From the IMG/VR virus record IMGVR_UViG_3300047462_000185, positions 1 through 64,000 of that record: a DNA stretch of 64,000 bases; one strand, 5' to 3'. Shown one piece after another: positions 732 to 13,987 of this stretch (the first letter of the stretch is position 1; each line of letters opens with the position of its first letter). The position numbers were made by a program, and so were the translations under genes. The notes beneath the pieces were generated by a model, which made no database searches, was not told where the DNA came from, and saw nothing but the letters and a program-made list of their open reading frames with translations. This stretch comes from a virus.

Positions 732-2731
732 TGCTGGTCAAGCACGAGGCCGGCAAGCCGCTCAGCGATGCGGAACGCAAGCAGCGCCGCGACGCGGCAC
801 GGGCGCGCTGGCACGTCGGCCTCGTCGCGACAGGCGCTGCTGTCGGCGCGGCTGCCGGTGCTGGGCGTGCCGCGGCGCGCACCGCGATCACGAGCCAGAA
901 CGAGATCGTGGCCCGCACCCGCGCCGCCGGCGTGCATGCGGCAGAGACAGCCGCCGCGGCCGAGCGTCGCATCCAGGAACGCGCAGATCGGCGCAACGCC
1001 GCGATCCGCGAGGCGTTTCGGTTTCGCAGGCGCGCAAACCCAGAGACGCAGCGCGAGCGCCAGCAGCGCTTTGGGCGCACCCTCGAGGAGGCCCGAAAGC
1101 CGGATACTGCAGCGGCGCGCCGCACCGTGCCGCCCGTCATCGGCACGCCCGAAAATGCGCGCATTTACGACTACCAGATCGCCTCTGCGCAACTGAAGCT
1201 GGGTGCCGAGCAGCGCTACCTTGCGCGCCTCAAGCAAGCCGAGCAGGACGCGTTCGACGGCAAGGACGTGCAGGCGCCCGAGCCGCGTCTGGTCCGCGCC
1301 ATCACCCAGCGCGTGGCGCGCCTGCAGCGCGACCTCGATGAGCTGAACCGGCTCAAGGCGCGCGCGCACGACAAGATCGTGCGGCGGGGCACCACAGCAA
1401 CCCGCCGGGGCAAGTCCGTCGATGTGCGGCCCACCACGACCGACCAGTTCCGCGGCGGCGAAACACTGCGCCAGCGCAAGAACCGCATCCTTGGTGCCAA
1501 GCGCGAACTCGCGGCCAAGGAGCGCAAGGTGTTGGACCAGTCGGCCCGCACGACAGCTGCGCTGCGCACCAGGGCCCGTGAGACTGCCTTCGAGGACGCT
1601 GGGGAAGCTGTCAGGCGGGCCTTCGTGCAGGGCCGCTACGGGAGCCGCATCGCCCGTGCCGCCGGGCGTGCCGGCCTCGTGGGGGCCGGAATCGGGGCCG
1701 CCGTCGGCGCCGGTGTGGCCGGCGCACACTGGCTCGCTACCCGGCGGGTCGAGAAGCTGGCCAAGGCCGCACCCGATGAGCCGGAAGATCCGATCGAGGT
1801 CGAGCGGAAGATCGCGGTCGAGCTGGCCCGCGTGTTCCAGGGCTGGATCAAGCAGATCTCTGACGAGACACCGACCATCAAGCTGGAGCAGGACCTGGGC
1901 CGCGCCCTGGCGCCGCTGGCCGACGTGTTCCGTGACGGCGCGAAGAAGCCGCCGATCGACGCCGGCGCGTCCGACCCCCGCGTGATCGAGTTCGACTTCG
2001 ACAAGATGAACCCAGCGGTGCGCCAGCACATGCAGGACTACACGCTGAACCGGATCCGTGAGATCTCCGACGAGCAGCGCGACGCGGTCCGTGCCGTGCT
2101 TCAGGGTGCCATAGCCGACGGCGCCGCACCTGCCACGATGGCGCAGCAGATCAAAGAGACGATCGGCTTGACCGTGGCCCAAGCTGCTATGGTCCAGACG
2201 TTCCGCAAGCAACTGGACGCGCTCGATCCGAACGCGCTGAACCGCCAGTTGCGCGACAAGCGGTTCGACCGGACCGTCCAGAAGGCGATCGACACCGGCA
2301 CACCGCTGTCGGACGCCCAGGTCAACAAGATGGTCGACGCGTATCACCGTCGGTTCGTCGCGTTGCGCGCCATGACGATCGCGCGGACCGAAGCGCTCCG
2401 AGCCGCGAACTACGGCAACCTGGCCGGGATGCGCCGCTTCCTGGAGGCGCACCCAGACTTCACAGTCATCAAGACCTGGAAGGCGACCGAGGACGAGCGG
2501 ACCCGCGAGACGCACCGCGAGCTCGACGGGCGCCAGGTCCTGGGGATCGACACGCCGTTCCTGACCGGCACGGGCGACACGATCCGCTGGCCGCACGACG
2601 ACACCGCGCCTGCGCGAGAGGTCGTCAACTGCCGCTGCACCCTGCAGTTCGTGGTCATCCCGAAGTCCACCGCCGTGTCCCGCTTCCTGACCGCCGATCA
2701 ACCCATAGCACCGTGGAGACCAAAGCCATGA
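731..2731 (+). CDS. Phage Mu F-like (SPP1 gp7 family) minor head protein with long Arg-rich N-terminal extension
   Basis: C-terminal RAMTIARTE...KTWKATEDERTRETHRELDG...WPHD...VNCRCT signature of MuF. Confidence 0.9.
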   Translation: MLVKHEAGKPLSDAERKQRRDAARARWHVGLVATGAAVGAAAGAGRAAARTAITSQNEIVARTRAAGVHAAETAAAAERRIQERADRRNAAIREAFRFRRRANPETQRERQQRFGRTLEEARKPDTAAARRTVPPVIGTPENARIYDYQIASAQLKLGAEQRYLARLKQAEQDAFDGKDVQAPEPRLVRAITQRVARLQRDLDELNRLKARAHDKIVRRGTTATRRGKSVDVRPTTTDQFRGGETLRQRKNRILGAKRELAAKERKVLDQSARTTAALRTRARETAFEDAGEAVRRAFVQGRYGSRIARAAGRAGLVGAGIGAAVGAGVAGAHWLATRRVEKLAKAAPDEPEDPIEVERKIAVELARVFQGWIKQISDETPTIKLEQDLGRALAPLADVFRDGAKKPPIDAGASDPRVIEFDFDKMNPAVRQHMQDYTLNRIREISDEQRDAVRAVLQGAIADGAAPATMAQQIKETIGLTVAQAAMVQTFRKQLDALDPNALNRQLRDKRFDRTVQKAIDTGTPLSDAQVNKMVDAYHRRFVALRAMTIARTEALRAANYGNLAGMRRFLEAHPDFTVIKTWKATEDERTRETHRELDGRQVLGIDTPFLTGTGDTIRWPHDDTAPAREVVNCRCTLQFVVIPKSTAVSRFLTADQPIAPWRPKP

Positions 2732-3759
2732 CCCAGACCGCTGTCGCCACTGCCGACCGGCAGTATGGCGCCCTGCAGAAGATGATCGACGTGGCGAACA
2801 CGCCCGAGGCGAAACAGCGCCTGATGTTCAAGGTCGCGATGTATCGCGCCGACATCAACAAGGCGCAGGCCCAGTTCGAGCAGATGTCCAAGGCGATGAA
2901 GCCGGCCGAGGCCCAGACCGTGATGAAGGGCGCGCTCCAGAAGTGGATCGACGCGGGCGACGGCGAGCTGAAGAAGGCCGTGGCGCAAGGCGTGTTCGGC
3001 CATATGTCGAACGTCGGCAAGCCACCGGCCGGCGAGCATGGCACCCCGGTAGCGGGACGGATCACCGGCAAAGACGATGGCGGTGTGCCGCGCATCGGTG
3101 CCAAGCATCAGAGCGTCAAGGGCAACATGAGCCGGTCCGAGACGACAGGCGGCAAGGGCACGGTCGACCCGGTGGAGCGCGCCGAACATGAGCGTGGCCC
3201 GGAAGAGGACGAAATCCTGGCGCCCGACAGCGAGGATTTCGACTACGAGGGCGTCGAGGACGGCGAGACCGAGACGGTCGGCCATCCAGGTGACGACGAA
3301 GGCGAGGACGAGGGCGACATGAGGCGCAAGAAGGCCCGCGCCAAGCTCGCCGCCGGCGCCGGCAAGATCAAGGTCGGCCAAGCGTTTGGTGGCAAGGTCG
3401 GCCAGAAGGAGCCAATGCCGGCCAAGAAGGTCACTCTTGCGGTCGAGCTGGTGAAGATCGCTCCGGACGCGATGATCGATGTGCTGACCAAGTTGGCGCC
3501 GGCCGACAAGGTGGCGATGCTGACCAAGGCGGAGCGCTACGCGGCAGACCTGATGGCATTCATCGACGGGGCGCGCGAGGCCGGCCTGAGCAAGCGCGAT
3601 ATCAGCCGGTCGGTCAGCGAGTGGATGCGGGGCGGCGACGTGCTGACCAAGAAGTTCACCGCCGAGGCACTCGCCGGCGCCGGGCAGATCCCGCTCCAGC
3701 TCGGCAATATGGTCCTTGCCTGGGAGGGCCGGTCGGCGGGACGCGGCCCTTTCGGCTGA
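2728..3759 (+). CDS. Hypothetical head-module protein with acidic central tract
   Basis: ATGA overlap with the MuF stop, GGAG upstream, strong GC3 bias. Confidence 0.75.
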   Translation: MTQTAVATADRQYGALQKMIDVANTPEAKQRLMFKVAMYRADINKAQAQFEQMSKAMKPAEAQTVMKGALQKWIDAGDGELKKAVAQGVFGHMSNVGKPPAGEHGTPVAGRITGKDDGGVPRIGAKHQSVKGNMSRSETTGGKGTVDPVERAEHERGPEEDEILAPDSEDFDYEGVEDGETETVGHPGDDEGEDEGDMRRKKARAKLAAGAGKIKVGQAFGGKVGQKEPMPAKKVTLAVELVKIAPDAMIDVLTKLAPADKVAMLTKAERYAADLMAFIDGAREAGLSKRDISRSVSEWMRGGDVLTKKFTAEALAGAGQIPLQLGNMVLAWEGRSAGRGPFG

Positions 3760-3926
3760 GGAAGAGCTTTTCCGAGGGCGCGATGCATGCCCTCGGGAAC
3801 GCGATCGGCATCATCGAGCGCCAGGCCGCGCGGCGCGCGAAGCCGAAATCTTCCCGGCACCACCTGATTGCCGGCTATCGCGTCGGGCGCGGCCTGCCCG
3901 CGAAGAAAGGGTTCACCGCGCCATGA
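3756..3926 (+). CDS. Short basic ORF, either independent (ATG 3783) or a -1 frameshift extension of the upstream gene
   Basis: Fills the gap exactly; its TGA overlaps the protease ATG (ATGA 3923-3926). Confidence 0.45.
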   Translation: MRKSFSEGAMHALGNAIGIIERQAARRAKPKSSRHHLIAGYRVGRGLPAKKGFTAP

Positions 3927-5170
3927 ACATGTCGCTGACGATGCCGCCGAAGGGCGCGATGCAAATCTTCGTCCCGCTCTGCAAGATCGACGAGGAGAAG
4001 CGCCTGGTCTATGGCATTGCCGCAGTCGAGAAGCCGGACAAGGCTGGCGAGATCATGGACTATGCCACGGCCAAGCCGGCCTTCACCGAATGGTCGAACA
4101 GCTTCTCGAATGCCACGAACGGCATGTCCAAGGGCAATGTGCGCGTGATGCATAACCCGAAGTTGGTCGCGGGCAAGCTGACCGACATGACGTTCGACGA
4201 CGACAACAAGGCGGTCCATGTCTGCGCGAAGATCGTCGACGACGCCGAGTGGCAGAAGACGCTGGAGGGCTGCTACACCGGTTTCTCGATCGGCGGCGGC
4301 TATGGCAATTGGTGGGCCGATGGCGCCTTGAAGCGCTACACGCCGAAGATCGCCGAGATCAGCCTGGTGGACAGCCCGTGCATCCCGGGCGCGCGCATCA
4401 TCGAGCTGCAGAAGGCGGACGGCAGCGTGACGGAGATCCACGCGACCGGCCGTGCCCCGCTGACCTACGGGCAGATGGTGCCGCCCAAGACCTATGGCGA
4501 TTTGGCGAAGGGGTTGGGTGGCATCGCGCGCATGGCGGGTCGGGGCGCCCTGAATTACTTCGACAGGGCTGGCGATATTGGCGAAAATATTGGAAGTTAC
4601 GCAGGCGGCCACATCGGAAATTTCGCCGGCAGAGCCGCAGCAACCGCGCCAGCCGTGGCTGCTTATGTTGGTGCGAAAAACCATGTCAGTGCAGCGTTAA
4701 GCGACCGTAAGCGCGACGAGCACGGCCGCTTCGCCGCTAAAATCGATGGCGCCTACGAAATGCGCAAAGGTCTGGGCGGTTTTGCGCGGATCGCCGGCCG
4801 CATCGAGCGCGAGGCTGTGCATTCGCCGCGGCTGGGCACCCCGGTTCGCCCGCGCATCCAGAGCGAGGGCCGATTCTCGGCGCGGCTCGGCAGCGGTATG
4901 GAAGATGCCAAGTCGCGCGACGCATCCGGCGCGACACATGCGCCAAGAAAGACAGGCCGTGGTCGCCTGATCACCGAACACGAGGTGCGCGCCGCGGCTC
5001 GCTCCGGCGCGGTTGGTGCAGGCATCGGAGCGGCCGCAGGCTATGGTGCTGGCCGCCGCGCCAAGCCCTTCGCCAGCACGGTCGAGCCGGACGAGCATCG
5101 CCGCGATGAGCATGGTCGCTTCGCCCACAAGATCGATGGCGCCCACGAGTTGAGCAAGCGCCGTGTCTAA
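3923..5170 (+). CDS. Prohead serine protease (XkdF/HK97-like) with C-terminal repeated cassettes
   Basis: KIDEEKRLVYGIA...PDKAGEIMD...NVRVMH...AGKL...YTGFSIGG...EISLVDSPC motifs (His and Ser catalytic contexts); head-module position. Confidence 0.85.
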   Translation: MNMSLTMPPKGAMQIFVPLCKIDEEKRLVYGIAAVEKPDKAGEIMDYATAKPAFTEWSNSFSNATNGMSKGNVRVMHNPKLVAGKLTDMTFDDDNKAVHVCAKIVDDAEWQKTLEGCYTGFSIGGGYGNWWADGALKRYTPKIAEISLVDSPCIPGARIIELQKADGSVTEIHATGRAPLTYGQMVPPKTYGDLAKGLGGIARMAGRGALNYFDRAGDIGENIGSYAGGHIGNFAGRAAATAPAVAAYVGAKNHVSAALSDRKRDEHGRFAAKIDGAYEMRKGLGGFARIAGRIEREAVHSPRLGTPVRPRIQSEGRFSARLGSGMEDAKSRDASGATHAPRKTGRGRLITEHEVRAAARSGAVGAGIGAAAGYGAGRRAKPFASTVEPDEHRRDEHGRFAHKIDGAHELSKRRV

Positions 5171-5285
5171 GCCGCCGCACATCCCACCGATCGTCCTGCT
5201 CGGTCTGTTCAGCCTGTTCCTGATGATCGGGTTCTATATGGTGATCGGCGAGATCGTGTCCGGCACGATGATGCCCGGAGCCTAA
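5163..5285 (+). CDS. 40-aa single-TM membrane peptide
   Basis: GTG start overlapping the protease end; MSKPPHIPPIVLLGLFSLFLMIGFYMVIGEIVSGTMMPGA. Confidence 0.45.
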   Translation: MSKPPHIPPIVLLGLFSLFLMIGFYMVIGEIVSGTMMPGA

Positions 5286-5289
5286 CGCC

Positions 5290-5622
5290 TCACCGATAGA
5301 CGCAGACCAGCGATCCCGACGATCGCAACACGGTCTTGTTCATGTCGCAGACCGTGGCGGCCAGCCCGACCGGCGGCGGCGGCCCGTGCTCGATCATGGC
5401 GAGCATGTCGTTGAACGTCAGCTGATCGCCCGGCAAACAGGTGCCTCGTATCTGCGACACGATCTCGGTTCCCGACGGCTCGAAAGTGCGGACCATGTTG
5501 ACCACGCATGCGCCATTGGTCCGGGAGTTGTGATACGAAGTCTCGACCGGCTGAATAGCGGGTTGCGGCGCTGCGCAGCCAGCCAGAACAAGCGCAAATA
5601 TCGTCAGGTTTAGACTTCGCAT
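5290..5622 (-). CDS. Lipoprotein (moron-like)
   Basis: Signal peptide with lipobox LAGC; AGGAG upstream; opposite strand to the late operon. Confidence 0.75.
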   Translation of the reverse strand: MRSLNLTIFALVLAGCAAPQPAIQPVETSYHNSRTNGACVVNMVRTFEPSGTEIVSQIRGTCLPGDQLTFNDMLAMIEHGPPPPVGLAATVCDMNKTVLRSSGSLVCVYR

Positions 5623-5640
5623 TCTCGTCTCCTTACAACG

Positions 5641-5671
5641 AAAAACGCCGCACCCCGAAGGATGCAGCGCC
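5641..5671 (-). terminator. Intrinsic terminator
   Basis: Minus strand GGCGCTGCATCC-TTCG-GGGTGCGGCG followed by TTTTT. Confidence 0.65.
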
Positions 5672-5880
5672 TAGTCTTTCGGCCACAAATTGAAGCGGTT
5701 CATGACTTCGGTTGATCCAAAGCCAATCAGGACAAGCAACCAAACCGGGACAAGCCACCAAACCAAGAAGAAAATCGCGAAAACGAACAGCAATACACCA
5801 GCCAGCTGTCCGAAGAAGGACAAATCTTCATCGCTTTTGTATCCGGCGTGATTGTTGTTGGTTTCGGGCTTCTTCTGCAT
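5671..5880 (-). CDS. Small hydrophobic membrane protein (moron-like)
   Basis: GGAGG RBS, long hydrophobic stretch, lower GC than flanks. Confidence 0.65.
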   Translation of the reverse strand: MQKKPETNNNHAGYKSDEDLSFFGQLAGVLLFVFAIFFLVWWLVPVWLLVLIGFGSTEVMNRFNLWPKD

Positions 5881-5964
5881 TTTCCCTCCACACACGATCA
5901 TGTGGGAACTCAGCACCGTAACGGCTAGCGGCGGTGATCTGCAACCCTGGAATGAGGAGAGGCC

Positions 5965-8900
5965 ATGGCTCTGCCGAATCCTCACTTCGATGCCTCGGTG
6001 ATCGGCGCGTTGCGCCAGCGTCTCGTGGCGCACAACCAGGCGCTCGCCAAGCGGGACGACAGGCTCACCCTAGGCAAGATGAAGGGGCTCTATCGGCGCT
6101 TCTACCATGGCAGCGATGATCCGCACGTCGCTGCCCTGATCCGGATCGACAGCCACCTCGCCAAGTTGCGTAAGGCCGAGTTCGACGCGGATGACCATCC
6201 CCGCGGCGCTGGCGGCAAGTTCCGCTCGAAGGGCGGAGCGAGAGCTGGTGCATTCTACCCGGCAACCCGCGATCAGCACGAGGCGCTGAAAGACGAGAAC
6301 TACGGTTATCGCCAAAACCAAACCGCGATCATTCCCGAGACGCGCTACGAGACGCTCGGACCTCCCGCTGCCACAGCGATCGGTGTGGGAGCAGGTGCTA
6401 TCCAGGGCGCTCTGTTCTCGACCCCAAAGGGAGACGCAGTCGATCGCGTTGTGGGGCGTTTCGGCCGCGGATTGGGATGGCTGGCAGGTGATATCGCGGG
6501 TCGCGCCACAATCGGAGCACCTGTTGTCTTGAGCGCGAAGGCAGCGAGACTTGGAATCGGAATGATCAACCGTTCTACCGGTTCTCGATTTCCGCGACCA
6601 AAACCAGATGCGGGCAAAAAATATTTGGCAGCGGGAGCCAAGATCGGCCGTCGTGCTGGACAACAAGTAGGCGGCCTTGCAGGAAAAGCCACTGGGCAGC
6701 TTGCTTCCATTCCGGCGTGGGCAACACGTCGAGCAATCGCAGGAATGATACCAGGTCGCCGCGGCAAATTGATTGCCGCACTCGCTGGGGGTTCGGTCGG
6801 CGGCGTTTTTCCAGGCTATTACGCCTATGGGCACTACCTCAACGCTGGCGTCTCATCGATCGCCCCTTTCATCGACGCGATGTTCCCGCGCCATGTCGAA
6901 AAGGCATTCGGCGCCGACATCGCCGCGCTCCTGACGGACTCCGAGGTGCTGGCCAAGCGCGACGCCGTGCTCGGCCTAGCCGGCGGCAACGACGTGTTGG
7001 AGAAGGCGCTGGGCGCCGAGATTGTGCGACGCGCCGTTCGGTTGATCGGCACCAAGGCCCGCGGCGTCGTCACCAGCAACGCGACCCAGGTGCCGCGCAA
7101 GTTCCGCATGTCGGCCGCGGGGCGCGCCGCCGTCACGGCCAGCGGTGGTGCGGTCGGCTCGATCGCCGGCGCCGCCGGCGGGGCCGCGGTTGGAGCCGGG
7201 CGGGCCATCTGGTCGGAGTTCAACGAAAAGCATCCCCGCGACGAGCGCGGGCGCTTCGCGCATGCCAATTCGGGTCGCGCCATCGCCCATGCCGCCGTGG
7301 TGGGGGCAGCGGTCGGCAGCGGGATCGGCCTGCTGGGCGGGCGCTACGCGGCGCGCCGGTTCGAAACCCGCCTGGCACGCAATGCCCTGGAGACGCATTT
7401 CTCGGCCGAAAACGTGCAGCGGATGCACAGCGACCTCGCCGCCAAGGTCAAGGAGCGCGTCGCGGATCGCTTTCTGGATGGGATGCACGACCCCGACAAA
7501 ATGCATGCCGAGGCGCTCGCAGCCGCGGCCCGAAACAAGACGGAGAAGTCTGAAGCGGCTGAGTTCGGGCGCGCCGCGTCGCACCTGGCGCGTCACCGTC
7601 CCTCCCTGCCCGAGACGATTCCTGTCGCACCTGGCGCGGACATGCATGGCACGGTGCGGGCCTCTCTGGCGCGCGCCGCCAGGGTGCGGTTCGACGCCAC
7701 GATAGGGCGCGCCGCCACATCGCCGATCAGCTGGATCACGCACCAGCTCGACGAGGGGTTCGACACCGAGTTCCGCAAGGGTATGTCGGCGCTCGGCGAA
7801 AAGATGCCGATGTTCGCCAACGCCAAGGGCGCCAAGGCGAACCTGATCAACAACGTCGATCCGGAGCAGCTCAGCCCCGAGGCCCGCAAGCTGTGGGACG
7901 GACTGGTGGCGCGCCGGACCAAGACGCTGGATGAGGTCAAGGAGACGCTACACCGCCGCACCGGCGATATGCAGGGTGCCCAGAAGACGCAACGTGAGTT
8001 GCAGCGCAAGGTAGATGCACTGGCGGCGAAGCGGCAGCATGTCGAATACCGGGGCGCCGAACTGATCGATGACGACGAAGCCGATCCGGCCGAGTTGCGT
8101 GCCTTCCTGAAATCCGAATTCGGCATCGAGTCGAAGGTAAGCAAGCGTCTCGCGCCAGAGGCGCAGCTCAAGGCGCTCAAGACCGAACTGCATAGCGCGA
8201 TCACACAGTTCGACGCCTCGGCCAAGACAGAGATCGAAGACATGACGCGCGACCTGGAGGACGCCAGGGAGCAGGTCAACCATCTGTCATCCGATATCCA
8301 CGGCGATCTGCGGCCCGCCGAGCGCGAGGCGATCCGCAACCCGTTCGCCACAGGCAAGAAGTCGCCGTTCTTCGAGCCGGTCCCGACCCGGGAAGAGCTT
8401 GAATTGATGCGCCAGGTCGCGATCCGGCGCGATCCGACCGTGCGCGCGTTCGACACCGTGACAGAGCAGCGCATCCGCGACGCCGGCAAGCGGCTCGGTA
8501 GCATCCTAGCGACGCAGAAGAAGGCGCTGGAGCGCCGGGGCCGCGCCGGCCTGACGGATGCCGGGGCGCACTGGATGCGCCGCGCCACGCCTATCCTGGC
8601 CCAGCATCTCGATGATGCGATGGCCGACCTGCACGCGCTGCGCGAGACGATGGTGGGCAATCGCGAGCCGAAGGGCTTCCTGCATTGGGTGCTGTTCGAC
8701 CGCGACATGAAGACCGCGGGCGCCTGGATGAAGGCTCAGGCCAAGAAGGCCCACGATTTCGGCGAGAAGATCGGCGGCGCGGCCTGGAACAACAAGGCGA
8801 AGATTGTCGGCGCGCTGGGCGTGGCCGAGGCGATCGGCGGCGTGTCCTACGACGACAAGACAGGCACGAAGGTGACGCTCAACCCGCTGAAATGGTCGCT

Positions 8901-10746
8901 GCCGCGCGGCCTGAAGGTCGAGGCGAGTAACCCAGATCCGTTCAACAAGGACAAAGGCCTGGTCGGCGTCACCTATCGAGCGCGCGACGGCAAGCGCCGG
9001 TTCCTGGTCGGCGCCTATGACGACGGACAGCAGGTCGGTGAAGGCAAGCCACGCCCGCGCCGCGACATCGCGTTCAACGCCGAACTAGAGCAGGTCCGCG
9101 AGCGTGTCCGCCAAGGCGGTCAGGGCGGCGGGGCGCAGGGCCAGGGTGGGGGCGCCCGCGCTGAGCCGGTCCTGCCGGACGACAAGCGCCAGGAGGCTAT
9201 CACCGCAGTGGCCACGCTCAAGGCCCACGGCAAGATCAGAGACGGCGGTTCGGGCGACTGGACCTATCAGCACAAGGAGGGTGCCGATTACGGCCGGCTC
9301 CAGAACGAGGTGCGCACCGCGTTCATTGCCAAGCACAACCAGCGCTGGAATTTCGCGAAGGACAAGCGTCCATACAACCCGGTCGCCTATTTCAGCGCGC
9401 TCCACGATCTCTTCGAGGCGCCCGAAACCGCGCTACTTTCGACCCAGAACAGGGCCGACATCCTGACCGGCAAGGGCATCAACCACGGCATCATGGCGTG
9501 GAACCCGGCCTATGACGGGCAGAACAAGGGGCAGGTCAAACAGGCGCTCCTTCAGGAATTCGCTGGTCAAAGTAACGATGTGCATGTCATCCGTGGCGAG
9601 TCCGACAAGAAGCAGGTGTTCCGCGCGATCGACGTGCTTGGCAAGCATTACGGCCTCGACGGCAGCGATGTGGGCCAGATCCAGGCCGCGGTCGAACAGA
9701 AGATGTCTGGCCACCCGGTCCGCGAAGGCCGTCCACAAGGACAGAGCAACCAGCCGCGTCAGGAGCAGCCACGCGCGCAGAATCGCATCGATCCCAAGAA
9801 CCTGGCCGATGAGCTTTGGCGCGACGGCCATCGCGGCAATCACACGGACCAGGAAAGTTTCCGAAGCATCGTGGCGAAGGCCTACGAGATTAAGCTCGGG
9901 GAACTGAAGCGTGCCGGCAAGGAAGGCCGTGCCGCCGAGATCGAGGCGCTGAACAGCACTGAGCTGAAGTTCAAGGGCTACCAGAAGTCCGACTATGCCG
10001 TCGATCTCCGCAAGGCCGATCTGTGGAGCGCCGAGGAGGGCGACGGCATCAAGCGCGCCGTCGGCATGGGCGCCGGCGATCTCGCTGAGGCCGGGGGCCG
10101 CAAGCTTGGTTCGGGCGCGGGTGGTGGTCCAGATGTTGGGTCAAAGCAGGACAAGCGCTCGTTCTTCGAGCCGGTCCGACTTGGTGGCTCGGTGGGCAGC
10201 TTCGCCGGCGGCGCGGCTGGCTGGACCGGTGCCGAGCGTGCCCTGGCGAGTCGTGCCGCCGGGCGAGCCGCACGTGCGACAGCGGCCGGCGTCATCTCGG
10301 TGCCGCGCCGCGCCAGCGCCGGCATCGCCGGCCGGCTCACCGGCGCGGGCCTCAAGTCTCTCGCGCGAGACGGCGCTGAACACGTGGTCGGGTTCGGCCT
10401 GAAGACGGCCGGCTCGATCCTGGGCGGCGCGGTCGGGCAGATCGGCCTCGAAGCCGCGGCGCGCGGCGCCTACGCATTGGCCGGCAAGAAGGCGCCGGGC
10501 AGCTACGCGCCCAAGATGTCGGGTGGCGAGCAGGTGGCGCGCACCGTCGGCTCAGTGTTGGGACAGGGCGCGGCTGTAGCGCTGGCCCCCGAAACGTTCG
10601 GCGCATCCCTGGCAGCTGGCACAGCCGGCGGTATGGCGGGTGATGCGGTCGGCGGTTGGCTCTACCACCATTTCGCGTCGAACTACGGCAAAGCCACGGC
10701 CAAACACATGGGCCGCTACTTCGCGCCCCCGGCGAAGAGCGCATGA
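5965..10746 (+). CDS. 1593-aa hypothetical head-module protein, putative internal virion/ejection polyprotein
   Basis: GAGGAG RBS; lies between protease and scaffold; Gly-zipper blocks, coiled-coil centre, HPR..G[KR]F motifs. Confidence 0.75.
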   Translation: MALPNPHFDASVIGALRQRLVAHNQALAKRDDRLTLGKMKGLYRRFYHGSDDPHVAALIRIDSHLAKLRKAEFDADDHPRGAGGKFRSKGGARAGAFYPATRDQHEALKDENYGYRQNQTAIIPETRYETLGPPAATAIGVGAGAIQGALFSTPKGDAVDRVVGRFGRGLGWLAGDIAGRATIGAPVVLSAKAARLGIGMINRSTGSRFPRPKPDAGKKYLAAGAKIGRRAGQQVGGLAGKATGQLASIPAWATRRAIAGMIPGRRGKLIAALAGGSVGGVFPGYYAYGHYLNAGVSSIAPFIDAMFPRHVEKAFGADIAALLTDSEVLAKRDAVLGLAGGNDVLEKALGAEIVRRAVRLIGTKARGVVTSNATQVPRKFRMSAAGRAAVTASGGAVGSIAGAAGGAAVGAGRAIWSEFNEKHPRDERGRFAHANSGRAIAHAAVVGAAVGSGIGLLGGRYAARRFETRLARNALETHFSAENVQRMHSDLAAKVKERVADRFLDGMHDPDKMHAEALAAAARNKTEKSEAAEFGRAASHLARHRPSLPETIPVAPGADMHGTVRASLARAARVRFDATIGRAATSPISWITHQLDEGFDTEFRKGMSALGEKMPMFANAKGAKANLINNVDPEQLSPEARKLWDGLVARRTKTLDEVKETLHRRTGDMQGAQKTQRELQRKVDALAAKRQHVEYRGAELIDDDEADPAELRAFLKSEFGIESKVSKRLAPEAQLKALKTELHSAITQFDASAKTEIEDMTRDLEDAREQVNHLSSDIHGDLRPAEREAIRNPFATGKKSPFFEPVPTREELELMRQVAIRRDPTVRAFDTVTEQRIRDAGKRLGSILATQKKALERRGRAGLTDAGAHWMRRATPILAQHLDDAMADLHALRETMVGNREPKGFLHWVLFDRDMKTAGAWMKAQAKKAHDFGEKIGGAAWNNKAKIVGALGVAEAIGGVSYDDKTGTKVTLNPLKWSLPRGLKVEASNPDPFNKDKGLVGVTYRARDGKRRFLVGAYDDGQQVGEGKPRPRRDIAFNAELEQVRERVRQGGQGGGAQGQGGGARAEPVLPDDKRQEAITAVATLKAHGKIRDGGSGDWTYQHKEGADYGRLQNEVRTAFIAKHNQRWNFAKDKRPYNPVAYFSALHDLFEAPETALLSTQNRADILTGKGINHGIMAWNPAYDGQNKGQVKQALLQEFAGQSNDVHVIRGESDKKQVFRAIDVLGKHYGLDGSDVGQIQAAVEQKMSGHPVREGRPQGQSNQPRQEQPRAQNRIDPKNLADELWRDGHRGNHTDQESFRSIVAKAYEIKLGELKRAGKEGRAAEIEALNSTELKFKGYQKSDYAVDLRKADLWSAEEGDGIKRAVGMGAGDLAEAGGRKLGSGAGGGPDVGSKQDKRSFFEPVRLGGSVGSFAGGAAGWTGAERALASRAAGRAARATAAGVISVPRRASAGIAGRLTGAGLKSLARDGAEHVVGFGLKTAGSILGGAVGQIGLEAAARGAYALAGKKAPGSYAPKMSGGEQVARTVGSVLGQGAAVALAPETFGASLAAGTAGGMAGDAVGGWLYHHFASNYGKATAKHMGRYFAPPAKSA

Positions 10747-12296
10747 GCGACTCGGCCGGCACCGGCGGTCCCGGTTTCACGCAAAGCCCAGCAGCCTTCT
10801 CCGGCCTGACCAACACAGATCTGCGGCCCCGTCCCCGCAAAAAGCGTCCCGTGCCTTTGCTCAACACAAGCTTTGTGACCCGGCGCGGCCGGAACAGCAG
10901 GAGTCCTCACATGCGTAAAATCTTCGCCGACAAGCTTGCGCTGCTGAAGACCAGCATCGCCGAGATCAGCAACGCCGCGCCCGAAACACGCGACGCGCTG
11001 CTGGCCAAGTCCTTCAGCGAGTTCGAGGCCGACATCGGCGCGACACTCGATGAAGTCGCGCCCGAGCCGGAGCCGTTGGCCAAAGGGCTGAACCTGATCA
11101 GCAGCCTCGCCACGCTGCTCACCCAGGTCGAGACCACGGTGAAGTGCATCTGCGAGGGCAAGGCCTATCGCTACAGCGACGCCGATGAGGAATGCCCCGA
11201 GCATATCCAACTGGGCCTCCATCACTTCCTCGCGGTCGGCGAGATGGTGCTGCGCGAAATGGTCAACGACCATGTCGAGATGCCGGAAGACGAGATGGAC
11301 GCCGAGAAGGCGGACCGGGCCGGCCAGCTGTTCAAGATCGACAGCGCCGGCACTGTTCTGTTGATCAAGAGCGCACTGCCGGAGAATCTGGTCGGCTTCG
11401 CGCAGGACCCTGCCCTGCTGGCGATCGACCGCATCGAGCTGGGCCGCGACCTCGTCGCGATGGGTGGCGACGTGCTGGTCGCGCTGGACCAGCAGGGCGT
11501 GCTGCCCGACGAGTTGCGCAAGGCCATCCCGCCCGAGATGGGGTCGGACGATGACGCCGGCGACGAGATGGATGGCGACGAGTCGGCCGATGCCGGCGAT
11601 GAGGGTATGGATGACGGCTCTGGCGATGATGGGTCTGGCGATGACGGCGGCGATGGCACCGATCAGATGGACCCGCTCGAGGTCATCGTGCGCCTCGCGT
11701 CCGCCATCATGGTGGTGGGCGGCTCGCTGATCCAGGCTCAGGGCGGCTCAGCGTCGGAAGATGAAGGCGAGATGGGCGGCGAGACCGATGAGGATGGCAC
11801 GGACGAGGCCGACCAAGAGTCGGAGGATACGGGTGGGCCAGGTCCGGCGATCCATGAAGGCGACGATGACGGAAGCACGCCCGAGGGCGAGTCGGGCCAG
11901 GGCGGCACGGACCACACCGCCGATGCGATGCACCGCAAGAACGCGGCGCACCAGTCCGCGCATGGACCGGCGGGGAGCCGCGCCATGTTCTCGGCCGGCA
12001 AGAAGCGCAACCCCGATCAGGCCGAGAAGGTCGCGCCCGGCGGCGCGCTCACCAAGGCGGTCGAGGCACGCATGGGTAAGCTCGAAGAAACGATGGGTGT
12101 GCTGAGCCAGGGCGTGGCCGCGCTCCTGAACCGTCCCGCCGCCGACGACAAGGGCCATTCCGGCATCAGCGCCGCGATCCCGCGTCAGCAGGATGGTCTC
12201 GGCAAAGCAGCCGGTCCCGACATTGCCGAGTTGGCGAAAACCAATCCGGAAGCCGCCGCCACAGCAATGATCCGCACCATCCTGACCGGCCGCTGA
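10743..12296 (+). CDS. Probable capsid scaffolding protein (alternative start 10911)
   Basis: Very acidic low-complexity centre; directly upstream of MCP; ATGA-coupled start at 10743 and AGGAG-preceded ATG at 10911. Confidence 0.65.
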   Translation: MSDSAGTGGPGFTQSPAAFSGLTNTDLRPRPRKKRPVPLLNTSFVTRRGRNSRSPHMRKIFADKLALLKTSIAEISNAAPETRDALLAKSFSEFEADIGATLDEVAPEPEPLAKGLNLISSLATLLTQVETTVKCICEGKAYRYSDADEECPEHIQLGLHHFLAVGEMVLREMVNDHVEMPEDEMDAEKADRAGQLFKIDSAGTVLLIKSALPENLVGFAQDPALLAIDRIELGRDLVAMGGDVLVALDQQGVLPDELRKAIPPEMGSDDDAGDEMDGDESADAGDEGMDDGSGDDGSGDDGGDGTDQMDPLEVIVRLASAIMVVGGSLIQAQGGSASEDEGEMGGETDEDGTDEADQESEDTGGPGPAIHEGDDDGSTPEGESGQGGTDHTADAMHRKNAAHQSAHGPAGSRAMFSAGKKRNPDQAEKVAPGGALTKAVEARMGKLEETMGVLSQGVAALLNRPAADDKGHSGISAAIPRQQDGLGKAAGPDIAELAKTNPEAAATAMIRTILTGR

Positions 12297-12472: not shown

Positions 12473-13987
12473 ATGAATACCCCGCAAGACAGTCTGGAGC
12501 TCATCAAGGGCGCCCTGGCGAGTGCTGGCCTTTCCGCAGCCGAAGACGTGCTGGCGAAGGCCTTTCTGCAGCCCACCACAACGCCCACAGGCTTGCAGGT
12601 CTATGACCTCGAAGCCCCGGCAAAGCTGCTCTACCCGGTCCTCACTCCGCTGCGCAACGCGATCCCGCGCGTCGGCAATGGACGCGGCATCCAGGCCAAC
12701 TGGCGCGCCGTGGTCGGCATCAACACGACCGGCGTGATCGGCTCGCTGGGCCAGGGCAACCGCGGCGGCGTGATCTCGACCACCACCAAGGACTACCTCG
12801 CCGCGTTCCGTGGCCTCGGCTACGACGACTATGTGACCTGGGAAGCGGACATGTCCGCCGAAGGGTTCCAGGACCTCAAGGCGCTCGCCGTCCAGGGCCT
12901 GCTTCGCTCGCTGATGATCGAGGAAGAGGCCACCATTCTGGGTGGTAACGGCTCGGTCGCACTGGGCACGCCCTCGACCCCGACCGTCACCGCGATCGGC
13001 TCGGGCGGTTCCATCGCCAACGCGACCACGGTCTATGTCGGCGTCGTCGCGCTGACCCACCAAGGCTGGCGTTCCTCGAACCTGGTCAGCGGTGTGCCTG
13101 GTCTGGTGAGCCGCACCAACGCCGACAGCTCGGTTGACACCTATGGCGGCGGCTCGTCCGCAGCCTCGGCGCTCGGCTCCGTCACCACCTCGGCGTCCAG
13201 CTCGACAGTCACCGCATCCGTCACCCCGATGGAGGGTGCCGTTGCCTATGCCTGGTTCGTCGGCTCGGCCAACAGCGCGGCGTCGTGCTATCTCGCCGCG
13301 ATCACCACGCTCAACTCGGCCGTCTTCACCGCGCTGCCGGCCAACACCCAGCAGGCCCTCAGCACCATCACGGCGGACAACAGCGCCAACTCGCTGTCGT
13401 TCAATGGGCTGCTGTATCTCGCATCGGCTTCGGGCTCGGGTGCCTACTGGGCCGCGCAGCCGACCGGCACGAACGGCACCGGCACGCCGCTCACCGCGGA
13501 CGGGTCGGGCGGCATTGTCGAGTTCGACACGATGCTGCAGTCGTTTTGGACCAACTACCGCCTGTCGCCTTCCGAATTCTGGGTGGGAACGCAGGAGCTC
13601 AACTACCTTCGCAAGAAGGTGCTGGCCAACACCGCGTCCGTGCCGAATCTGGTGCGCTTCACCGTCTCGACGGCGCGCGACCAGCTGCAGGGCGGTCTCG
13701 GTATCCGCGGTTACCTGAACCCGTTCGGCATGGGTCAGGCGGTCGAGATCCCGATCAAGCTGCACCCGAACATGCCGAACGGCACCATCCTGGCCGTCAC
13801 GCATGAGCTGCCCTACTCGCTGTCGGGCGTCTCCAACGTGATCCAGATGAAGCTGCGACGCGAGTATCACCAGCTCGAGTGGCCGCTGCGGTCGCGCAAG
13901 TATGAATACGGCGTCTACATGGATGGCGTCCTGCAGCATTATTTCCCGCCGTCGTTGGGTATGATCACCAATATCGGCGCCGGCTGA
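12473..13987 (+). CDS. Major capsid protein with Ser/Thr/Ala-rich beta-sandwich-like insertion
   Basis: Position after scaffold; YDLEAPAKLLYPVLTPLRNAIPRV near the N-terminus and YEYGVYMDGVL...GMITNIGAG at the C-terminus. Confidence 0.85.
   Translation: MNTPQDSLELIKGALASAGLSAAEDVLAKAFLQPTTTPTGLQVYDLEAPAKLLYPVLTPLRNAIPRVGNGRGIQANWRAVVGINTTGVIGSLGQGNRGGVISTTTKDYLAAFRGLGYDDYVTWEADMSAEGFQDLKALAVQGLLRSLMIEEEATILGGNGSVALGTPSTPTVTAIGSGGSIANATTVYVGVVALTHQGWRSSNLVSGVPGLVSRTNADSSVDTYGGGSSAASALGSVTTSASSSTVTASVTPMEGAVAYAWFVGSANSAASCYLAAITTLNSAVFTALPANTQQALSTITADNSANSLSFNGLLYLASASGSGAYWAAQPTGTNGTGTPLTADGSGGIVEFDTMLQSFWTNYRLSPSEFWVGTQELNYLRKKVLANTASVPNLVRFTVSTARDQLQGGLGIRGYLNPFGMGQAVEIPIKLHPNMPNGTILAVTHELPYSLSGVSNVIQMKLRREYHQLEWPLRSRKYEYGVYMDGVLQHYFPPSLGMITNIGAG

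Follow-up and report, generated by a model that had tools for sequence, protein, structure and literature searches.

We analyzed a 64-kb window of viral DNA, the initial part (positions 1 to 64,000) of the 106.6-kb IMG/VR virus record IMGVR_UViG_3300047462_000185, which originates from moss metagenomes. The left part of the window is a siphovirus-type structural operon, and within it a gene on the + strand (3923..5170) encodes P0001, a 415-residue prohead protease with a C-terminal tail built from two modules. Sequence comparison supports the first of these modules as an exchangeable cassette, with borders at a junction directly behind the protease domain and inside a conserved peptide tag, because a close relative, P0124, holds another segment at this position and the replaced stretch coincides with an island of atypical codon usage. 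We assign a probability of roughly 0.55 to the interpretation that P0001 is an assemblin-type protease carrying a C-terminal string of exchangeable, framed modules that would be released in the head as cargo.

A predicted assemblin-type protease with a two-module tail

The gene is an open reading frame (ORF) for which an identical 415-residue gene call exists on the 106.6-kb record. Its N-terminal part (residues 1–180; 3923..4462, +) is predicted to be a genuine assemblin-fold prohead protease of the T4 gp21/herpesvirus assemblin type, because it matches phrog_9427, head maturation protease (E 1.9e-12), adopts this fold in structure prediction and retains His77 and Ser122, both invariant across 30 homologues. 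The AlphaFold model, computed from a 30-homologue alignment, has a predicted local distance difference test score (pLDDT) above 90 across residues 21–160. Its top Foldseek matches are T4 gp21 (5jbl) and the human cytomegalovirus (HCMV) protease, with a probability of 1.00, and the proteases of pseudorabies virus (PRV), Epstein–Barr virus (EBV) and Kaposi's sarcoma-associated herpesvirus (KSHV) are also matched, the values ranging from 0.99 to 1.00. The match to the family hidden Markov model (HMM) PF14550 (Peptidase_S78_2 XkdF) is weak, at 18.8 bits and thus under the curated cut-off of 24. The position of the gene in a head-morphogenesis operon is that of a prohead protease.

The tail comprises 220 residues and is basic (isoelectric point 10.8, net charge +16), weakly hydrophobic and rich in Gly and Ala (34% together); AlphaFold predicts it to be mostly disordered, with low-confidence helices. 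Junction 1, TYGDLAK (residues 190–196; 4490..4510, +), directly follows the protease domain. Module 1 (residues 197–282; 4511..4768, +) consists of the head GLGGIARMAGR, a Gly-zipper middle, a tag and junction 2, with tag 1 and junction 2 together reading RKRDEHGRFAAKIDGAYEMRK (residues 262–282; 4706..4768, +; repeat D6, 80% nucleotide identity with the second copy). Module 2 (residues 283–412; 4769..5158, +) has the head GLGGFARIAGR, a 58-residue basic stretch, a Gly zipper found by motif scan (residues 357–377; 4991..5053, +; a helix is predicted at low confidence for residues 352–379), and tag 2 with junction 3, HRRDEHGRFAHKIDGAHELSK (residues 392–412; 5096..5158, +), after which only RRV and the stop codon follow. 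It is longer than module 1 by about 58 residues, which include a degenerate third copy of the tag and junction, RPRIQSEGRFSARLGSGMEDAK (residues 309–330; 4847..4912, +). The end motif thus combines a local form of the tag (RDEHGRFA) with the junction motif [FY]x[DE][LM]xK.

A BLASTP comparison of the two modules aligns their ends (15 of 22 residues identical, E 5e-9) and their heads (9/11, E 0.002), and returns no alignment between head and end. The sequence-only reading, an earlier description of this stretch made without database searches, had proposed two tail units with conserved ends, each with a Gly/Ala-zipper helix in an unrelated middle. The conserved ends are borne out by these alignments and the zippers by the motif scan, which detects the GxxxG pattern in the tail. 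The unrelatedness of the middles holds in part: they lack a BLASTP alignment, but their zipper cores are alike (RAGDIGENIGSYAGG.. and RSGAVGAGIGAAAGY..; z 2.9, p ~0.01 against shuffles), and both modules follow a common plan of zipper, 12–20-residue spacer and tag. Neither module has a Pfam match at E up to 5, Gly-zipper families included; Pfam and PHROG reveal no toxin domain or family in the tail, and an ESM Atlas search with the tail gave no usable match.

The same plan recurs outside the protease. At residues 381–437 of the neighbouring 1593-residue protein (5965-10746), a Gly zipper, a spacer and KHPRDERGRFAH (7138..7266, +) form a module of the type seen in the protease tail, with similarity to the zipper-plus-tag half of module 2 at z 6.2, and homologues of this large protein in loci L002 and L041 also carry the tag and zipper. 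The module 2 zipper, whose 17-residue Kyte-Doolittle maximum of 0.93 lies under membrane-helix values, resembles the second zipper in the MuF protein (731-2731) at z 5.5. The 345-residue N-terminal extension of that MuF protein (731-1765, +) contains two Gly zippers, of which the second (residues 309–328) is identical to the module 2 zipper at 16 of 20 positions.

Replacement of module 1 in a close relative

Shorter proteins containing the tail were searched for, which yielded P0123, encoded on an 8.8-kb contig; P0124 is the longer call of this gene. P0124 begins at the equivalent of Met185 and has MVPPKTY(G/H)DLAKG in common with P0001, so that the left junction is identical at 12 of 13 residues. 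The two proteins are again nearly the same over the stretch that begins at the GRF of tag 1 and runs to the C-terminus, with 137 of 148 residues identical (93%). Between the junction and this GRF, P0124 has 120 residues and P0001 has 72, and the two segments are unrelated, their only likeness being a weak 25-residue match at the start (z 2.9). Junction 1 is thus the left border of the replaced segment and GRF, at nucleotide 4724, the right one; P0124 carries the canonical tag DKHPHDAKGRF. The middle of P0124 is closest to the tail of the homologue P0002 (z 5.1), and the module 1 middle of P0001 is closest to the tail of P0005 (z 5.0), whose protease is only 47% identical.

Metagenomic contigs bear on both forms. 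The moss run X9 contains a variant that is 97% identical over 3800–4473, together with a 509-nucleotide contig whose last 135 nucleotides match 4724–4858 and whose first 374 match nothing here, as would be expected of the P0124 form. X9 has no contig cover over 4484–4711, and we did not count coverage gaps as evidence. Three moss-metagenome runs hold pieces identical to P0001, one of them spanning 4522–4948, and identical contigs run across the junction of modules 1 and 2 in independent moss metagenomes (e.g. X5 record 13).

The replaced segment also stands out in its codon usage. The protease domain has a GC content at third codon positions (GC3) of 0.91, module 1 as a whole 0.61, its middle 0.50 and module 2 0.74; the sequence-only reading had named the course of GC3 along the gene as a check. 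After correction for amino-acid composition, the module 1 middle remains atypical (z -5.3) and module 2 is near normal (z -1.3); the excess of A/T-ending codons that the earlier reading had seen in the first unit is therefore real. The maximum-likelihood segment (log-likelihood ratio 15) covers residues 216–259 (4568..4699, +), exactly between the conserved head and end, and is replaced in P0124. Other Gly-zipper blocks, in MuF and at residues 360–480 and the C-terminus of the large protein, have normal codon usage. Low GC3 as a general property of Gly/Ala coding was therefore rejected, and the dip marks particular segments, not glycine-rich coding at large. With an unrelated 120-residue segment in place of 72 residues, and an island of atypical codons at the same place, the earlier idea of exchangeable modules is supported for module 1.

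Elsewhere in the structural operon, the first Gly-zipper block of the 1593-residue protein (6355-6870, +) has the most atypical codon usage of all (z -10.8) and may be a second swapped segment.

Tail variation among homologues

The 240 proteins that match P0001 do so via the protease domain only. In 98 of the 121 homologues examined, the domain is followed by a long acidic scaffold-like tail, often DUF6582, and the cultured relatives, Brevundimonas phages, likewise have the protease-scaffold form, adjoining the coat gene. The P0001 tail, basic and Gly-rich, has no similarity to the 98 scaffold-type tails. Instead, an acidic scaffold-like protein is encoded by a gene of its own (10911-12296, +), and the P0001 tail is therefore probably not the scaffold; in this lineage, two genes some 6 kb apart appear to encode the protease and the scaffold separately. 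The assignment of the 10911-12296 protein is used as context, its alignment to the LEKGMYxVxRFA block conserved in scaffold-type tails being consistent but weak (hhalign E 0.0014, probability 18%). Its C-terminal motif is similar to that of the scaffold-like tails in most protease homologues.

Among the roughly 23 nearest relatives of P0001 there are 15 unrelated classes of tail, and Gly zippers abound in most of these, so that an invariant tail, which would have spoken against exchangeable modules, is not what the comparison shows. In close relatives, the protease domain leads directly into [FY]x[DE][LM]xK, which is often present as a tandem of two or three copies and is commonly followed by (F/Y/W)DE(S/T)KH(P)R..G(K/R)F and then by a Gly zipper. 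The tag is present in 11 homologues with Gly-zipper tails and in none of the 98 scaffold-type tails.

A comparison of cassette number and content, which the sequence-only reading had suggested, gives one to four modules per homologue with unrelated contents. P0002, whose protease is 78% identical to that of P0001, has a single module that is framed in the same way, ends like tag 2 and junction 3, and contains a stretch similar to the degenerate copy of module 2. P0024 (locus L002, 4010-6088) has two clear tandem tag-plus-zipper cassettes of about 128 residues. The protease homologue of L068 (885-4130, 1082 residues) has LFGDL[YF]K junctions at four places, with a canonical tag behind two of them; they lie between dissimilar segments, one of which is Gln/Pro-rich.

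Two further features were noted in L002: a PKPSGAG(T/I)CPTCGAP segment is duplicated in the P0024 tail, and an ISXO2-like transposase gene lies between MuF and the protease operon.

Direct searches with the tail returned little. With phmmer, the sole match among 1.8 billion representatives was a fragment of the tail's own sequence, a word-based search at near lengths gave no match, and when P0001 peptides were compared with contigs from viral, genome and metagenome collections, only distant protease relatives were recovered.

Conserved frames, tag and junction motif

The frames of the modules are kept by selection on the peptide, since the codons of identical residues mostly differ between the copies. 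The two heads use the same codon at only one of nine identical residues, and their longest common run is 5 nucleotides; for the two ends these values are 9 of 15 and 12 nucleotides. Neither in the window nor in the rest of the genome were further DNA copies of the flanks found. The two sets of flanks in the P0001 gene are thus not recent recombination substrates for each other. The sequence-only reading had placed recombination at the conserved flanks: the breakpoints of the swap do lie at conserved motifs, but the copies within the gene differ at most synonymous sites.

The tag extends well beyond this protease family. When IMG/VR was scanned for KHPRDxxGRF, 77 loci (L014-L090) were returned, nearly all in frame in long ORFs. 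Positions left free by the pattern are conserved as well, with W or F at -4 in 55 of 65 cases, followed by D, E and S, and Gly-rich sequence usually lies 3' of the resulting tag, [WF]DESKHPRDxxGRF. When ten tag ORFs were compared with Pfam, the tag was found just behind Phage_portal/Portal_Mu domains and behind or before MuF, and some of these ORFs also contain ADP-ribosyltransferase (ART) or NUDIX domains. In one third of the cases the tag has [LMIV]xK before it, and a Gly zipper follows only a few of the tags. A tblastn search of cultured phages with the 25-residue tag region gave no match. In the searchable literature we found no description of the tag, of Gly zippers in phage heads or of cargo on XkdF proteases, and papers on MuF toxins and polyvalent proteins (PMC5576092, PMC3482391, PMC5512222) mention neither the tag nor the junction motif nor Gly zippers.

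The junction motif is enriched in the head proteins of the window. Six head proteins contain LAK nine times, compared with 2.1 expected, and ten proteins of the phage tail contain it once, compared with 1.2 expected; [DE][LM]xK occurs ten times in the head proteins, compared with 2.7 expected. Junction-type sites lie at plausible borders: they follow the MuF extension, occur in the first part of the coat protein and precede the tag close to the N-terminus of the large protein, and this last position holds for L002 as well.

In the coat protein, the site is DVLAK|AF at residue 29 (12473-12560, +), a possible propeptide cut site of the junction type.

Proposed mechanism and alternative explanations

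Based on these observations, we propose that the fused modules are cargo. Since the protease would have to enter the procapsid, the modules would ride in with it. Cutting by the protease after the junction lysines K196, K282 and K412 would then free peptides of about 9 and 14 kDa, which would stay in the head as internal proteins and may exit with the DNA. Processing or docking would be the task of the conserved frames, which are also the seams along which related phages exchange divergent cassettes. Release by self-cleavage is plausible, given the enrichment of the motif in head proteins and the analogy with known systems. We further considered, as a speculative extension that we regard as doubtful, that junction and tag form a general plug-and-play grammar, by which any peptide or domain placed in such a frame, whether on the protease, the portal, MuF or a large internal protein, would enter the capsid, be released by cutting and be delivered together with the DNA. 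The Gly-zipper cassettes would then be envelope-active, host-facing delivery or counter-defence peptides traded among closely related phages under diversifying selection.

Several observations weigh against the cargo interpretation. The LAK enrichment could simply reflect helix-rich head proteins. The protease identity of the P0124 relative is taken from the X9 contigs, which possibly belong to another genome, and beyond P0123/P0124 and the weak P0002 and P0005 matches the tail has no detectable relatives. The zippers are weakly hydrophobic, their best 17-residue hydropathy window (0.98) lying below transmembrane values. MEDAK in the degenerate copy, considered as a third junction, was downgraded: the final DAK of this copy reads NAE in P0124, the lysine is absent, and the copy is probably not a working junction. 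Furthermore, the structure of the tail is predicted with low confidence, and a flexible docking tail fits it equally well.

That last point leads to the main rival, which we regard as possible: the tail could be a disposable, disordered docking arm that arose by ordinary tandem duplication and is degraded once the protease has been built into the procapsid, with motifs that bind scaffold, coat or portal and middles that are neutral spacers free to drift and recombine. Most homologues fuse the protease to a scaffold-like tail (the 98 of 121 above), and because the scaffold is separate here, another route of procapsid entry would be needed, which such an arm could provide. The occurrence of the tag on the 1593-residue neighbour, and behind portal and MuF domains elsewhere, is likewise reminiscent of a docking signal. 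The low complexity and predicted disorder of the tail, the plain tandem duplication in P0024 and the fact that the middles have only the zipper-spacer-tag plan in common all agree with this account. However, neutral spacers leave unexplained why a Gly-zipper helix is present in each module and in three head proteins and why the basic charge is kept throughout, and the swap between near-identical phages is compatible with a docking arm, yet not predicted by it.

The sequence-only reading had likened the tail to a polymorphic array, and a toxin-like version of this idea, in which membrane-damaging peptides would be delivered with the DNA or freed at lysis and act on competitors or the host, seems unlikely to us. 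The likeness stands in so far as a conserved carrier has a hypervariable C-terminus in which a cassette has been exchanged between relatives, and Gly-zipper helices are present. Candidates for immunity would be a low-GC antisense insert next to the protease gene, which encodes a lipoprotein and a membrane protein, or a 40-residue ORF with a GTG start, GTGTCTAA (5163-5285, +), which overlaps the protease stop codon. This ORF has phage-typical GC3 (0.88) and encodes one strongly hydrophobic helix (Kyte-Doolittle 2.4), and it probably is a real, translationally coupled small membrane protein. Yet the likeness fails for the toxin domain and DNA-level flanks, and any immunity gene would be a candidate at most. 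The tail has no recognizable toxin domain or family match, its variable parts are low-complexity rather than globular, and its hydropathy is too low for classical pore formers. We found no same-strand immunity gene of known type, the genes after the 40-residue ORF being on the opposite strand; the relative L002 lacks such small genes 3' of its protease. An orphan cassette array downstream is absent, and the flanks within the gene lack DNA homology (runs of at most 12 nucleotides). Chance resemblance in low-complexity sequence, or a mis-called gene end, is hardly credible. The tail is rich in Gly, Ala and Arg, and the library-wide phmmer search finds only the tail itself, but the reading frame is open and identically called in the public record, and the 22-residue end motif, significant between the modules at E 5e-9, recurs in P0002, P0124 and the neighbouring gene. 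Together with the identical contigs across the module junction in independent moss metagenomes, the end motif and P0124 effectively refute this explanation.

Relation to known systems

The herpesvirus pUL26/pUL80a precursors and the phage proteins Mu gpI/gpZ, lambda C/Nu3 and P2 gpO are protease-scaffold fusions. P0001 resembles them in having a C-terminal extension behind an N-terminal protease of the same fold, for which procapsid entry would be expected here too, and its conserved sites, located directly behind the protease domain and close to the C-terminus, recall the herpesvirus release and maturation sites. In contrast to these fusions, the extension of P0001 is basic, Gly-rich and repeated, cutting is a prediction, and a separate acidic scaffold-like gene precedes the coat gene. 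T4 gp21 processes small basic internal head proteins (IPI-III, Alt) that have a capsid-targeting sequence as their short shared signal, and the ejection proteins of SPN3US and phiKZ are cut by their own prohead proteases. Small basic parts, short shared signals, an assemblin-fold protease and cargo that varies between related phages are common to the T4 internal proteins and P0001, whereas the putative cargo of P0001 is fused to the protease and its signals differ in sequence and lie at module ends rather than at the N-terminus only.

MuF polymorphic toxins and phage polyvalent proteins combine a head-internal carrier domain with exchangeable C-terminal parts (PMC5576092, PMC3482391, PMC5512222). 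The tag links P0001 to such systems, being found in other phages next to ART and NUDIX domains and behind MuF domains, but the P0001 tail has neither a globular toxin or enzyme domain nor an identified immunity gene. Encapsulin cargo-loading peptides are short conserved peptides that mark proteins for the shell interior; a short conserved peptide beside flexible Gly-rich linkers is also found here, although the sequences are unrelated. Gly-zipper membrane peptides have GxxxGxxxG-type helices flanked by basic residues. A GxxxG-type pattern with basic flanks occurs in the P0001 tail, but no family HMM matches it and its hydropathy lies under transmembrane values, so that it does not qualify as a member of this group.

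Head-maturation proteases are usually seen as housekeeping enzymes, whereas in P0001 cassettes are exchanged at a hot spot: a single module of 70–120 residues, enclosed by conserved peptide motifs, is entirely different in two phages that are about 97% alike. Provided that the modules are released by cutting and packaged, the enzyme would also serve as a loader of variable internal or ejected peptides, which is usually the task of MuF, of portal extensions or of dedicated internal proteins. In portal, MuF and effector-bearing phage proteins, the tag lies at domain borders; knowledge of its role, be it cleavage, docking or another one, would help to predict phage proteins that travel in the capsid, and the tag could be of use for bringing foreign cargo into phage heads.

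Genomic context

The head genes are arranged in the order MuF, a gene of unknown function (2713-3759), protease, large protein, scaffold, coat (12473-13987) and adaptor, and the same order is found in L002 and L041. The adaptor gene 3' of the coat gene is followed by head-closure, tail, tape-measure and lambda-like tip genes.

The protease gene and the gene of the 1593-residue protein are separated by the antisense insert (5290-6033, - strand), which has a low GC content of 0.52-0.57 and looks like a moron. It contains a lipoprotein gene (5290-5622) with the lipobox LAGC, a small membrane protein gene ending at 5671, and a terminator-like hairpin at 5672-5643.

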